DNA of 32,000 bases from Dickeya dadantii NCPPB 898. Its GTDB lineage: Bacteria > Pseudomonadota > Gammaproteobacteria > Enterobacterales > Enterobacteriaceae. Location: assembly GCF_000406145.1 (NCBI RefSeq), contig NZ_CM001976.1:958505-990504 (forward strand), in the 5' to 3' direction. This document shows, one piece after another, positions 3,192 to 7,054 of the stretch. The notes beneath the pieces were generated by a model. It was given only the letters and a program-made list of their open reading frames with translations, did not search any database and was not told where the DNA came from. The position numbers were made by a program, and so were the translations under genes. Position 1 is the stretch's first letter; each line of letters begins with the position of its first letter.

Positions 3192-4385
3192 TCAGCCTTT
3201 TTTCGGCATGCGGGCGAAGCTCACCATCAACTGTACGCCGTTAATCAGCACCAGCAGCGCGGTGACCAGAAACACCCAGCGGTAGCCCAACGTGGCGGAA
3301 ACGGTAGAGCCGAGCAGCGGCCCGACCACGTTGCCGAGATACATGCAGGATTGGTTATACCCGAAAATGCGGCCGGTCACCTGCTGGCTGCTGTATTTCA
3401 CCAGCAGCGCCTGCACCGCCGGCATCAGCGCGCCGTCGGCGAAACCCAGCGCGAAGCGCAAAATCCCGAGCTGAACCGAGCTTTGCACCGCCGACATCAG
3501 GAAGAACAGCAGCGCGCACAGGAACAGCGCCACGATCAGCACCCGCTGGGAACCGATGCGATCCCCCAACCGGCCGAGGCGCGGCGCGGACAACAGCGCC
3601 GACACTCCCGGCACGGCGGCGATAACGCCGCTGATAAACGCGATATTATCAATGTTGGGGGAGAGGTCGCGGATAAACAACGTCAGGATCGGGCTGATGG
3701 AGCCGTTCGCCATCTGAATCATCATGGTGGTGAAGCACAGGCTGACAATCAGCAGCGGATAAGGCAGCGAGGCGAACACCGCCCGGCCGCTGAGCTGCGC
3801 TTTTTTGCTGACGGTAACGGCATTTTCACGGATGGCGAACAGCGTGATGAGAAAGCAGATAAACAACATGGCGGAGGTGACGAAAAACACCATGCGCAGA
3901 CCGATGGTATCGGCCATGAAGCCGCCGAGCAGCGGACCGATCAACACCCCCGCCACCTGCCCGGTGGACAACGTGCCGAGCGCCCAACCGCTGCGGCTAC
4001 GCGGCACCTGCGAGGCAATCAGCGCCATGGCGTTGGGAATGTAGCCGGAGGTCAGCCCCATTAGCGCGCGCAGGATAAACAGCTGCCAGACGTTGGTGGC
4101 CATGCCTTGTAGCGCCATGACGATAGACATACCGAGCGCGGCGCGCAGCAACATCAGCTTGCGGCCCTTGCGGTCGGCCAGGCTGCCCCACAGCGGCGCG
4201 ACAATCGCCGAAATCAGAAACGAGGAACTGAACACCAGCCCAGACCACAGATTGAGCGCGGTGTGATCGCTAACGCCCAGATGTTCGATGTAGAGCGGCA
4301 GGAACGGCAGTATCTGGCTCATGGCCATGCCGGTGAAAAAACATCCCAGCCAGGCGGAGAAAAGGTTGAGTTTCCAGGTTTCCAT
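3192..4385 (-). CDS. mdtG: MFS multidrug efflux transporter MdtG (YceE)
   Basis: The 397-aa ORF aligns along its whole length with my recollection of E. coli MdtG. Shared stretches include WLGCF.TG..., [58 protein letters not shown] and GRIF.YNQS. Confidence 0.9.
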
Positions 4386-4616
4386 AGGGCAGGTTTTTAC
4401 GTCGTCAGTGAAAGGCCGGGTCGCTCCCGCGCCAGTGCCACGCTGAATTACGCGACACCGCTAGTATGGCCGCTTTTGTCTTAGCCGGGAAATAATTTTA
4501 TATATCAAAGAATAATCCAACCCCGGTGATTGATGGGTTTTTGGTTGCAAAGCGGTCGTCGAACACACTGTGGTGCCCAGATAAACAAGAAAACCAAAAC
4601 GTGATTCTGAATTTTT

Positions 4617-4632
4617 TGTGATTTGAATCACA
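4617..4632. promoter_or_regulatory. near-consensus CRP (cAMP receptor protein) binding site
   Basis: TGTGAtttgaaTCACA matches TGTGA-N6-TCACA perfectly. The palindrome extends to 9-bp arms (ttttgtgat / atcacaaaa, 4614-4635). It lies between divergent mdtG and the small ORF. Confidence 0.6.
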
Positions 4633-4638
4633 AAAGTG

Positions 4639-4667
4639 TTGCGTCAGGATTCAACAAAACGTACAAT
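4639..4667 (+). promoter_or_regulatory. candidate sigma70 promoter for the small ORF
   Basis: TTGCGT (4639-4644), a 17-nt spacer, then TACAAT (4662-4667). It is about 45 nt upstream of the GTG at 4715. The CRP-site centre would fall near -49, which is a non-canonical spacing. Confidence 0.35.
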
Positions 4668-4714
4668 CTTTTACCAGAAAGTTCACAAATCATTCATTAG
4701 CCAAGGTGATCGAC

Positions 4715-4792
4715 GTGCGTAAATTCCTGAAAAAACTTCTGGTCGCTTACATCAATGCTTACAAAGACATCCCGCCGGGTGCCATGCATTAA
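4715..4792 (+). CDS. candidate small protein (25 aa), MRKFLKKLLVAYINAYKDIPPGAMH
   Basis: GTG start preceded by AAGGTGA with 5-nt spacing. The TAA stop is at 4790-4792, and a strong intrinsic terminator begins 24 nt downstream. It is below the ORF-track size cutoff. I recall no homologue. Confidence 0.4.
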   Translation: MRKFLKKLLVAYINAYKDIPPGAMH

Positions 4793-4815
4793 TTGCCCTG
4801 AGCAGACCAAAATTA

Positions 4816-4854
4816 AATAAGAAGGCCGCTATGACAGCGGCCTTCTTATTTTTC
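4816..4854 (+). terminator. rho-independent terminator (15-bp stem)
   Basis: aataagaaggccgct / atgac / agcggccttcttatt followed by tttcg. The A-tract/T-tract symmetry suggests it could act bidirectionally. Confidence 0.75.
4822..4844. repeat. copy 1 of a perfect 23-bp direct repeat (aaggccgctatgacagcggcctt)
   Basis: An identical 23-mer recurs at 5801-5823, 979 bp away. Confidence 0.9.
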
Positions 4855-4985
4855 GTTAGGTATGAACATACAGGCGGGCTGTAATTTCTTGGGTTATTGC
4901 GTCTGTTAGGGCTGGAAGATGGGTTCAACCGCGTAGCAGCAGCGGTGGGCCGGGTGCTATTGTTTAAATTGGTTAATAAACACAC

Positions 4986-5654
4986 ATGGTTTTTGATATT
5001 ATCAATCTTAACAAAGTACAACAGGCTATGCTTACAATGTCACCAGTCCTCAACGATAGCGGGAGTTTTGATATGGCGATTCTTCCAATGTCATATAGTC
5101 CTGCCACTATGGCGCGGGAATACCGGAAAATTGGCGAAACGGGTGTGAACGGTCGTGCGGTGGATATTTATATTCACAGTGATCGGCACCATGCAGTGGC
5201 AATATATGGCGAACCCGATGACGTTGATGGTGATTTACGGCATGTTGTGGTAGCAAAGATTGACCTGAAATCCCGTAACAGCGACGACGAAACCGAAACT
5301 ATTTTGGCTGTCATCGGTTATTACGAGAATCTGCAACCGGTGAATACCCATCCTGCCCAGGTTGAAGGCGTGATTGTCGCCAAGCGTGAACGAAACGCCA
5401 ATGTCGCCAGCGCCATGTATAAGGCGCTCATTAACGACGGCATTGTGCTGGTTAGTGATAACCTTCAATTCCCTGGAGGGAAAGCACTATGGGCGCGTAT
5501 GGCACGTAAAGAGATGGGTATTGATGGTTTGTATTCGACTCAGAACGGCGTGCTTTCTGGCCGTATGACGGTGAACGGATCCGATACGATGGCCGCAGTA
5601 TTCCAGAGAGCGACATCTGGAGTCTTGCGCCGAATGAATCGCGAAAAGGGGTAG
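4986..5654 (+). CDS. hypothetical protein (orphan; weak GNAT-like motif only)
   Basis: Track ORF of 222 aa. The best translational start is probably the ATG at 5073 (MAILPMSY...), which follows GGGAG with 7-nt spacing and gives 193 aa. The gene is visibly AT-richer than its flanks. The segment VIVAKRERNANVASAMYKALINDGIVLVSDNLQFPGGKALWARMARK loosely resembles an acetyltransferase motif-A region. I recognise no confident family. Confidence 0.6.
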   Translation: MVFDIINLNKVQQAMLTMSPVLNDSGSFDMAILPMSYSPATMAREYRKIGETGVNGRAVDIYIHSDRHHAVAIYGEPDDVDGDLRHVVVAKIDLKSRNSDDETETILAVIGYYENLQPVNTHPAQVEGVIVAKRERNANVASAMYKALINDGIVLVSDNLQFPGGKALWARMARKEMGIDGLYSTQNGVLSGRMTVNGSDTMAAVFQRATSGVLRRMNREKG

Positions 5655-5757
5655 TGCTGGTAGCTGAACGCAAACGAGATGAATCAGCAGTTTGATGCAG
5701 CCTCAACCTGCGCAAAAACTTGCAGCGTCTAACTTGTGGTAGAAGTTCATACCTATT

Positions 5758-5800
5758 GACAAAGTCCCTGCCGGCGAGTCAGGACTTTGTCTGTAGTTTT
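5758..5800 (+). terminator. hairpin plus T-rich tail downstream of the orphan ORF
   Basis: gacaaagtcc / 14-nt loop / ggactttgtc forms a perfect 10-bp stem, followed by tgtagtttt. Confidence 0.5.
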
Positions 5801-5828
5801 AAGGCCGCTATGACAGCGGCCTTTTTCA
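5801..5828 (+). terminator. rho-independent terminator; copy 2 of the 23-bp direct repeat
   Basis: aaggccgct / atgac / agcggcctt followed by tttc. The 23-mer is identical to 4822-4844. Confidence 0.65.
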
Positions 5829-5895: not shown

Positions 5896-5975
5896 ATCAT
5901 AGTTTTAACAAAGCATAGTTTTAACAAATCATAGTTTTAAAAAATTATAGTTTAAAAAAATTATAGTCTTAACGA
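5896..5975. repeat. 16-bp x5 tandem repeat (consensus ATCATAGTTTTAACAA)
   Basis: The units are atcatagttttaacaa, agcatagttttaacaa, atcatagttttaaaaa, attatagtttaaaaaa and attatagtcttaacga. The last unit contains the dmlA stop codon (5969-5971). Confidence 0.9.
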
Positions 5976-7054
5976 CTCAGCGCCTGCGCAATCGCCTCGC
6001 CCAGCGCGGCGGTGTTGCCGCTGCCGCCAAGGTCCCGCGTCAGCGGCGCATTTCCCGGCCCCTGTGCCAGCACCCGTTCAATGGCGCTTAGCACCGCCGC
6101 GCCGGCGGCGTCGTGACCGAGGTGTTCCAGCATCATCGCCCCGCACCAGATTTGGCCGATTGGATTGGCGATGCCTTTGCCGGCGATATCCGGCGCCGAG
6201 CCGTGCACCGGTTCGAACAGGCTGGGGAAGGTGCGATCCGGATTGATGTTGGCCGACGGCGCGATGCCGATAGTGCCGGTACAGGCCGGGCCGAGGTCGG
6301 ACAGAATATCGCCGAACAGGTTGCTGGCGACCACCACGTCAAACCAGTCCGGGTGCAGCACGAAGTTGGCGGTGAGGATATCGATGTGATATTTGTCCAC
6401 CTTCACTTCCGGGTAGCGGGCGCTCATGTCGGCGACGCGGCTGTCCCAGTACGGCATGGTGATGGCGATGCCGTTGGATTTGGTGGCGGAAGTCAGATGC
6501 TTTTTCGGGCGTTTCATCGCTAGTTCGTAGGCGAATTTAAGGATGCGATCGACGCCGACGCGGGTCATCACCGTTTCCTGAATCACCACTTCGCGCTCGG
6601 TGCCGGCAAACATCGTGCCGCCGACGCTGGAATATTCGCCTTCGGTGTTTTCGCGCACGATGTAGAAGTCGATATCACCGGGTTGACGCCCGGCCAGCGG
6701 CGCTTTCACGCCCGGCATCAGGCGGCAGGGGCGCAGGTTGACGTACTGGTCGAATTCACGGCGGAACAGCAGCAGCGATTGCCACAGCGACACGTGATCC
6801 GGCACCACCTCCGGCCAGCCCACCGCGCCGAAATAGATGGCGTCAAAGTCCTTGAGCTGCGCGAACCAGTTGTCCGGCATCATCTTGCCGTGCCGGAGGT
6901 AGTAATCGGCGTTGGCGAAATCAAACCATTCCCACTCCAGCTGGATATCAAACAGTTCGGCGGCACGGGCGATCACCCGTACCCCTTCCGGCATCACTTC
7001 CTTGCCGATGCCGTCGCCGGGAATGACGGCAATGCGGTAACGCGGTTGAGACAT
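5969..7054 (-). CDS. dmlA: D-malate dehydrogenase (decarboxylating) / tartrate dehydrogenase, isocitrate-isopropylmalate dehydrogenase family
   Basis: The track ORF runs 5969..7333, but the real start is the ATG at 7054 (MSQPRYRIAVIPGDGIGKEV...), which follows AGGAG. The 361-aa product closely matches my recollection of E. coli DmlA/YeaU. Shared stretches include FDAIYFGAVGWP, FRREFDQYVNLRP, DFY.VRENTEGEYS, LTSATKSNG, VVASNLFGDILSDLGPACTGTIGIAPSAN and SLFEPVHGSAPDI. Confidence 0.9.
   Translation of the reverse strand: MSQPRYRIAVIPGDGIGKEVMPEGVRVIARAAELFDIQLEWEWFDFANADYYLRHGKMMPDNWFAQLKDFDAIYFGAVGWPEVVPDHVSLWQSLLLFRREFDQYVNLRPCRLMPGVKAPLAGRQPGDIDFYIVRENTEGEYSSVGGTMFAGTEREVVIQETVMTRVGVDRILKFAYELAMKRPKKHLTSATKSNGIAITMPYWDSRVADMSARYPEVKVDKYHIDILTANFVLHPDWFDVVVASNLFGDILSDLGPACTGTIGIAPSANINPDRTFPSLFEPVHGSAPDIAGKGIANPIGQIWCGAMMLEHLGHDAAGAAVLSAIERVLAQGPGNAPLTRDLGGSGNTAALGEAIAQALSR

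Follow-up and report, generated by a model that had tools for sequence, protein, structure and literature searches.

Phage morons are self-contained promoter-gene-terminator units that lie between conserved genes. Here we describe a single-gene islet of 956 bp, located between azuC and dmlA in Dickeya dadantii NCPPB 898, which by analogy appears to behave like a phage moron planted in a hot spot of the core genome; all coordinates refer to the 32-kb stretch of this genome that was analysed, hereafter the window. As in phage morons, the single gene has its own promoter-like site and terminator and a GC content below that of its surroundings, its homologues are accessory genes of P1-like phage-plasmids, and the unit shared between genera is approximately the promoter plus the open reading frame (ORF). 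Unlike phage morons, the islet occupies a gap in a bacterial core genome, with a terminator copied from the host gene azuC. Islands at the 3′ ends of RNA genes resemble it in that the direct repeat is the 3′-terminal hairpin, the 3′ end is regenerated and loss is precise; here, the 23-bp direct repeat overlaps the azuC 3′ end, and azuC retains a full hairpin, as with an att-type repeat. In contrast to those islands, the islet has neither an integrase nor a larger relative, is 956 bp long, and has no attP donor that we could find. As at hot spots and minimal mobile element loci, the azuC-dmlA gap is empty, carries a GNAT-like gene or carries an unrelated esterase gene, depending on the Dickeya; unlike those loci, the islet adds duplication of a hairpin and precise, repeat-mediated deletion.

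We consider it probable, with moderate confidence, that the islet arose by a one-off insertion of non-mobile DNA with duplication of the azuC terminator, and that it is lost through the duplicated repeats. The locus is fairly ordinary gene gain and loss and not a new class of mobile element. It is a clean natural case of a single foreign gene gained and lost at a core-genome site, with both states found within one species. A literature search returned nothing relevant to the islet.

Occupied and empty azuC-dmlA sites

The 23-mer AAGGCCGCTATGACAGCGGCCTT occurs exactly twice in the window, at 4822-4844 and 5801-5823, as a preliminary description drawn from the letters of the window had stated. 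At the empty sites of D. undicola 2B12 and three D. solani assemblies, the sequence runs ...aaataag, a single 23-mer and tttcatgtcttcg..., continuing into the dmlA 3′ end, and the same empty reading (aaataag, 23-mer, tttcatg) is found in D. solani, D. undicola and the D. dadantii locus L024. In the window, the left junction reads ...aaataag, 23-mer, cttatttttcgttaggtatgaac..., and the right junction reads ...gtctgtagtttt, 23-mer, tttcatatcttcg.... The occupied site therefore equals the empty site plus 956 bp (4845-5800) and a second copy of the stem-loop. The enclosed segment has a GC content of 0.48, lower than in the window as a whole (0.57) and in the flanking genes mdtG, dmlA and dmlR (0.61-0.63), in agreement with its earlier description as AT-richer. 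These comparisons indicate that 956 bp of AT-richer, apparently foreign DNA was inserted within Dickeya, exactly at the 3′ base of the terminator stem-loop, and that the insert would form a self-contained transcription unit, with a predicted promoter and a GNAT-fold gene from a phage-associated family.

Gene order in this part of the window is mdtG-like major facilitator superfamily (MFS) transporter (minus strand), azuC (plus strand), islet, dmlA (minus strand), dmlR and queF. The features on which the argument rests are as follows.

4845-5800, plus strand: inserted DNA, 956 bp, delimited by comparing occupied and empty junctions; GC 0.48.
4815-4851, no strand assigned: left hairpin, made of the native azuC/dmlA terminator and the first 7 nt of the insert; includes the 23-mer at 4822-4844; perfect 16-bp stem.
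5801-5823, no strand assigned: right 23-bp copy of the terminator hairpin, followed by the native U-rich tail TTTCATATCTTCG....
4706-4792, plus strand: azuC small-protein gene, 28 aa; NCBIfam NF033642 stress_AzuC equivalog.
5969-7054, minus strand: dmlA, D-malate/3-isopropylmalate dehydrogenase (PF00180), convergent neighbour.
3192-4385, minus strand: mdtG-like MFS transporter gene.

Outgroups indicate which state came first. Musicola keenii reads AAAAGGCCGacagtgatactgCGGCCTTTTTT, a single hairpin and T-run followed directly by dmlA, and D. lacustris reads AAGGCCACTGTACAGTGGCCTTTTCTTTT, a homologous single hairpin with its T-run, next to an unrelated esterase gene and with no second hairpin. 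Hence, the hairpin is native to azuC, and a single hairpin with a T-run is the ancestral form. The proposal in the preliminary description that DNA was inserted at a pre-existing terminator, with the terminator duplicated, is thus supported by the one-hairpin sites that it had suggested looking for, which we found between azuC and dmlA in D. solani, D. undicola, M. keenii and one D. dadantii strain. We regard as highly improbable the converse scenario, in which two hairpins and the gene were there from the start and all empty sites arose by later deletion. The repeats do give rise to precise deletions and the occupied state is widespread in Dickeya, as that scenario would have it; however, it is at odds with the single hairpin, T-run and dmlA of the outgroup M. 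keenii and with the single hairpin and different gene of D. lacustris, with the low GC content and phage homologues of the cargo gene, and with the distinct loci that this gene occupies in Pectobacterium, other Enterobacteriaceae and E. coli.

The D. lacustris gap (locus L014, 1794-3100) contains a 343-aa esterase gene of the Abhydrolase_3 family that is unrelated to the islet, and its hairpin is not duplicated. Since this gap too has received a gene, the azuC-dmlA interval is a recurrent insertion hot spot in Dickeya.

The left hairpin lies 30 nt past the azuC stop codon and is therefore the azuC terminator; dmlA converges on it, so the terminator is shared by azuC and dmlA. The right copy scored as terminator-like on the plus strand (fold of -17.1 kcal/mol); it terminates the cargo gene and retains the native downstream flank. 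Thus, azuC keeps the left copy, with its 16-bp stem, while the cargo gene and dmlA rely on the right copy, which still has its original tail. Because the terminator of azuC, a dual-function small-RNA/small-protein gene, was both the landing point and the sequence copied, neither neighbour lost its terminator.

The islet is found at the same site, with both hairpin copies, in D. dadantii (the window and 15 other occupied loci, including strain 3937), D. dianthicola, D. chrysanthemi Ech1591 and a Dickeya sp. from a metagenome (L049). Identity to the window in the cargo ORF follows that of the flanking genes mdtG and dmlA: 98.9% and 97.7-97.9%, respectively, for D. dadantii L001, 94.7% and 93.4-95.0% for D. 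dianthicola, and 92.5% and 89.4% for D. chrysanthemi. Synonymous divergence (dS) of the cargo gene climbs with that of dmlA (cargo/dmlA values of 0.04/0.06, 0.07/0.20, 0.10/0.15 and 0.27/0.44), and the hairpin copies are diverging independently, with a right-copy loop of ACGTC in D. chrysanthemi and left-copy loops of ATAAC in L049 and ATGAT in 3937-type strains. This pattern fits a single old insertion that would have been inherited along with its flanks in several Dickeya species. Both D. solani and D. undicola lack the islet, although the former is more closely related to D. dadantii than D. dianthicola or D. chrysanthemi are, and the latter more closely than D. chrysanthemi is; hence, losses have occurred.

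One such loss can be read within D. dadantii. The assembly GCA_009903315.1 (L024) lacks the islet, and its flanks share ~99% identity with the flanks of occupied strains. The one hairpin that remains there has the ATGAT loop that in 3937-type strains is confined to the left copy, joined to the right-copy tail tttcatatcttcg. L024 thus has the expected structure of a product of recombination or slippage between the 23-bp copies, with the exchange apparently 3′ of the loop marker, so that a single-base marker fixes the recombination point. We conclude that the islet is, by this reading of the junctions, occasionally lost precisely via the 23-bp repeats, restoring a single-hairpin site. Strain pairs that differ by the cargo gene alone offer a handle on its function.

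A phage-associated cargo gene with a predicted GNAT fold

The enclosed segment contains one substantial ORF, 4986-5654 (222 aa as written), as the preliminary description had noted. However, that reading is frameshifted: a single T near position 5526, present in every other D. dadantii strain, is missing from the window, and the conserved C-terminus (...PYDGERIRYDGRSIPESDIWSLAPNESRKGVVLVAERKRDESAV) is readable from 5561 in another frame. The window copy is therefore a pseudogene. Position 4986 is an unlikely start because it lies inside the predicted promoter, because the corresponding residues are disordered in the structural model (residues 1-29) and because they are unconserved in the family; M18 (5037) or M30 (5073) is the likely start. 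We annotate the gene and its promoter as follows.

5037-5695, plus strand: cargo gene, GNAT-fold, phrog_7522; frame runs to 5654 as written, C-terminus in the frame 5561-5692, stop codon 5693-5695.
4973-5002, plus strand: promoter-like site TTAATA-18-TATTAT with a TG element, within a block conserved between Dickeya and Pectobacterium.

Homology between the genera begins ~45-80 bp upstream of the cargo ORF. In the metagenomic Dickeya sp. L049 (JAAIGF010020711.1, 990-1085), a unit of ~19 bp, ACCGGGTACTATTGTTTAA, is present in ~4 tandem copies upstream of the ORF; the window has one copy.

Lesions are not confined to the window copy: D. dianthicola has a premature stop codon, D. chrysanthemi an internal deletion, and some Pectobacterium copies frameshifts. 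Intact cargo genes have dN/dS values of 0.04-0.09, indicating strong purifying selection; together with the structural model and motif A described below, this speaks for a real gene.

The preliminary description had treated the ORF as an orphan with no family that could be named. This did not hold: the family of the cargo protein comprises ~250 clusters at 50% identity, almost all with a length of ~210 aa, and the protein matches phrog_7522 (E 1e-44). P1-like phage-plasmids, SJ46 and RCS47 among them, carry full-length homologues (~38% identity) as accessory genes close to the repL region. Searching viral contigs with a narrow family alignment returned only relatives at ~31-38% identity. The low GC content, phrog_7522 membership, P1-like homologues and a Pectobacterium copy at another location together point to a foreign, phage-associated origin of the cargo gene. 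The locus thus places phrog_7522, an uncharacterised, conserved, phage-associated GNAT-like family, in the chromosomes of plant pathogens.

The same description had detected a weak acetyltransferase-like motif, a hint that predicted structure supports at the level of the fold. An AlphaFold model of the cargo protein (pLDDT 84.9, pTM 0.82) was compared by Foldseek with structures in PDB, and the top matches were all GNATs (HAT1, AANAT and Naa10/20; E ~2e-4, probability ~1), although with TM-scores of only 0.3-0.37; matches in BFVD were uncharacterised or 'NAT_SF' phage proteins, the best with TM-scores of 0.66-0.71. GNAT motif A ([R/Q]-x-x-G-x-[A/G]) is recognisable in the family consensus, with R/Q in 34 of 45 members, G in 32 and A/G in 38. 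A further likeness to the GNAT superfamily is the name that PGAP gives to an E. coli relative (see below). The cargo protein differs from typical members in these low TM-scores, in the Dickeya version of motif A (R-N-A-N-V-A, with N replacing G), in having a further conserved region at the C-terminus, in which Y201 and W212 are invariant, and in its sub-threshold Pfam score: no Pfam family scored above threshold, the nearest being PF00583 (Acetyltransf_1) with E 0.15 and 12.7 bits against a gathering score of 20.7, and PF00583 reached E<0.01 in just 4 of the 45 family members. A profile search of PDB sequences with the cargo family gave no match, and PADLOC returned no defence-system match for the cargo. 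We conclude that the cargo is, as modelled, a divergent GNAT-fold protein that is probably acetyltransferase-like.

Inverted repeats, mobility and origin of the second hairpin

A perfect 11-bp inverted repeat, TAGGTATGAAC at 4857-4867 and its reverse complement at 5745-5755 (chance expectation 0.09), lies just inside the direct repeats of the window, as first described. Two features bear on whether it marks the ends of an element.

4857-4867, no strand assigned: left inverted-repeat arm TAGGTATGAAC in the window; counterparts in other species differ.
5743-5796, no strand assigned: 54-nt block specific to D. dadantii, containing the right arm (5745-5755) and an internal hairpin (5756-5791), with GTAG on either side.

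The preferred reading in the preliminary description was a cassette resembling a miniature inverted-repeat transposable element (MITE), or cargo transposon, bounded by TAGGTATGAAC...GTTCATACCTA. The arms are present and the internal hairpin (12-bp stem) folds well, as had been proposed, but we find the cassette reading barely credible. Neither arm is at a boundary of the insert: one is 12 nt and the other 45 nt further in. The 54-nt block that carries the right arm is single-copy in the window and missing from D. dianthicola, D. chrysanthemi and L049. Even within D. dadantii, 14 of 16 occupied loci carry an imperfect right arm, GTTCAGACCTA (10/11 match), and only the window and L022 have a perfect one. 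At the left arm, D. dianthicola has CAGGTATGAAC and D. chrysanthemi CGGTTATGAAC. The window contains no further copy of the inverted repeat, and cargo copies in other genera lack the arms. The 54-nt block is either a small secondary insertion or a sequence removed from the other lineages by microhomology deletion. Part of it is an inverted copy of the left end of the islet (16/19 nt).

The cargo gene at other sites gave the same answer. In Pectobacterium, the ORF is 89% identical at the DNA level but occupies an unrelated site, and DNA homology between the genera is limited to the promoter region and the ORF. In Pectobacterium polaris, the gene lies between an RGI lyase gene and a hydrolase gene, and in the Enterobacteriaceae genome CP015774.2 (L007), it lies between yidE and ibpB; neither the 23-mer nor the inverted repeat was found at the Pectobacterium and Enterobacteriaceae copies, and their flanks are unrelated. 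E. coli O145:H28 RM13516 (L050, 3995-4198) carries a C-terminal pseudogene fragment of the family between a hybrid sensor kinase gene and yjdP; the fragment is present in 34 chromosomes and is named 'GNAT family N-acetyltransferase' by PGAP. We found no repeats flanking the P. polaris islet or the cargo copy in P1-like phage. Since the arms are not termini and the flanks elsewhere are unrelated, there is no evidence for a recurrently mobile or hairpin-targeting cassette. Both of those suggestions had been made from the window. With no recombinase, no conserved terminal repeats and no recurrence with the same ends, the islet appears not to be self-mobile.

The L007 islet between yidE and ibpB is ~1.8 kb long and contains the cargo-family gene and a 96-aa ORF. 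It is flanked by a 14-nt direct repeat, AAAAAAGCCCTGCC (4559-4572 and 6371-6384), which equals one arm of the ibpB terminator. On this sequence, L007 may be a second case of terminator-associated insertion, E. coli being too diverged to serve as an empty-site comparator.

We also asked how common the 23-mer is. Allowing up to 3 mismatches, no further copies were found in the 32-kb window (chance expectation 0), and an exact-match scan of genome contigs returned one copy in the whole D. undicola assembly. The scan missed D. solani, D. dadantii and D. dianthicola despite the presence of the 23-mer in other assemblies of these species, so its counts are lower bounds; the contig collection appears to be masked or incomplete around the azuC locus. 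Apart from D. undicola, the contig scan gave a chance match in a Micavibrio metagenome-assembled genome, and one hit of a metagenome scan was a terminator identical by chance in an unrelated, GC-rich organism (L048). The 23-mer was absent from viral contigs, and blastn of the islet DNA against phage and plasmid collections gave no match. These counts set aside the concern that the 23-mer might be a scattered repetitive extragenic palindrome (REP).

Comparison with established element classes was likewise negative: the islet lacks the defining properties of transposons and MITEs, IS200/IS605-type elements, REPs, integron cassettes and integrase islands. A REP/BIME palindrome was rejected on low copy number. 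An IS200/IS605-type or PATE element was rejected on the grounds that the hairpin is the native target and empty sites keep one. As for an integron cassette, GTTAGGT occurs at 4854-4860 only in D. dadantii (its counterpart is GTCAGGT in D. dianthicola and L049, and GTCGGTT in D. chrysanthemi), and the insert has no inverse core.

A further feature lies at the left junction: in all occupied lineages, the left hairpin copy is followed by 7 nt that are complementary to the 7 nt before it.

D. dadantii, 7 nt before and after the left copy: AAATAAG and CTTATTT (4845-4851).
D. dianthicola, 7 nt before and after: AAACAAC and GTTGTTT.
D. chrysanthemi, 7 nt before and after: AAACAAG and CTTGTTT.
Dickeya sp. 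L049, 7 nt before and after: TAATAAG and CTTGTTT; one T.G wobble, outermost position unpaired.

The resulting 16-bp stem folds with -28.2 kcal/mol (z -7.3), compared with a 12-bp stem and -20.1 kcal/mol at the empty D. solani site and a 9-bp stem and -17.1 kcal/mol for the right copy. Across five lineages, the left stem shows two compensatory pairs and a U.G intermediate, with 98.8% of cells paired. The U.G intermediate suggests that selection acts on the RNA, in this case the azuC terminator; the covariation is suggestive only.

Tentatively, we propose that the hairpin was duplicated by a one-off replication or repair accident at the palindrome, an origin that is plausible but falls somewhat short of an even chance. 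Fold-back and template switching would have taken place at the stalled palindrome, foreign DNA would then have been copied, and synthesis would finally have returned upstream of the hairpin, so that the whole stem-loop was duplicated. Such a fold-back model predicts both duplication of the whole hairpin and a 7-nt palindrome extension at one junction.

The main rival is site-specific integration, in which a circle, or a prophage or integrative element that has since decayed, carried the 23-bp palindrome as attP and was integrated by a tyrosine recombinase acting in trans; the two 23-mers would then be attL and attR at the azuC terminator, as for islands at tRNA and sRNA 3′ ends. The circular or phage-borne form of the islet would carry the junction ...GTAGTTTT, 23-mer, CTTATTT.... 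Several features suit this origin: a perfect palindrome of the size of a recombinase core lies at the 3′ end of an RNA gene, direct repeats border the foreign DNA exactly, excision is precise, the cargo family is phage-associated, and the gene is bordered on either side by ~100-190 bp of non-coding DNA, possibly left over from att arms. Against these stand the lack of any integrase gene or remnant in the islet and of a larger element at the site in any of ~25 Dickeya loci. In addition, the 23-mer is missing from viral contigs and the islet DNA from phage and plasmid collections, cargo copies elsewhere lack the 23-mer, and the 7-nt palindrome extension at the left junction is left unexplained. 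We therefore judge integration unlikely.

A lesser rival, which we consider distinctly unlikely, is target-site duplication: a transposase or integrase acting in trans would have made staggered cuts at the ends of the palindrome and joined a linear foreign fragment, and gap filling would have copied the 23 bp, much as for a casposase or Cas1-Cas2. Cas1-type integrases duplicate whole palindromic repeats and favour cruciform-prone borders, and the unit duplicated here coincides exactly with the borders of the stem-loop. However, the insert has no terminal inverted repeats and no ends conserved across lineages, a second such insertion of the cargo was not found at the sites examined, a 956-bp insert is unlike known Cas1 substrates, and with one event only, a target preference is not demonstrable. 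Still less likely, with a small residual chance, is a trans-mobilised cassette of ~1 kb, or an enzyme activity, that targets the palindromes of intrinsic terminators and duplicates the whole stem-loop. If true, this would be a general route for planting single moron-type genes behind host genes, terminator included, analogous to the duplication of CRISPR repeats by Cas1-Cas2 or the use of folded hairpins by integron cassettes.

Several points weigh against a one-off, non-mobile insertion. The original duplication event is not observable, and we infer its origin. With its perfect 23-bp palindrome (8-7-8 or 9-5-9), the repeat also resembles the core site of a recombinase. The copy number of the 23-mer was verified genome-wide in D. 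undicola only. The covariation in the left stem comes from 5 sequences and was equalled by 36 of 500 shuffles, and the 7-nt stem extension could have been selected later, restoring the terminator after loss of its U-tail. Under purely vertical descent, the islet must have been lost precisely and independently three times or more (in D. solani, D. undicola and L024). Finally, cargo dS is just 0.35-0.7 times dmlA dS, so the islet may have spread between species by homologous recombination in the flanks.

Flanking genes and sequences

The assignment of azuC rests on a match to the NF033642 equivalog (E 2.7e-11, 42.9 bits, cutoff 30), and Pfam AzuC is called on the orthologous gene in loci L001, L012 and L016-L018. 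The MdtG of the window is identical to a protein of D. dadantii assemblies and is one residue different from that of strain 3937. Exact look-ups of the 222-aa ORF and of DmlA as they stand in the window returned no record, and a search of Rfam around the hairpin gave sub-threshold chance matches only.

Outside the islet, between the right hairpin copy and the dmlA stop codon, a 16-bp unit, CATAGTTTTAACAAAG, is repeated in tandem 4-5 times (5898-5961). The repeat has 0-5 units across D. dadantii strains, is degenerate in D. undicola, and contains promoter-like hexamers on both strands. On the other side, upstream of azuC, 4617-4632 (TGTGATTTGAATCACA) is a perfect CRP-type palindrome (TGTGA-N6-TCACA), with a -10-like TACAAT near 4662. 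The palindrome suggests catabolite control of azuC in Dickeya.

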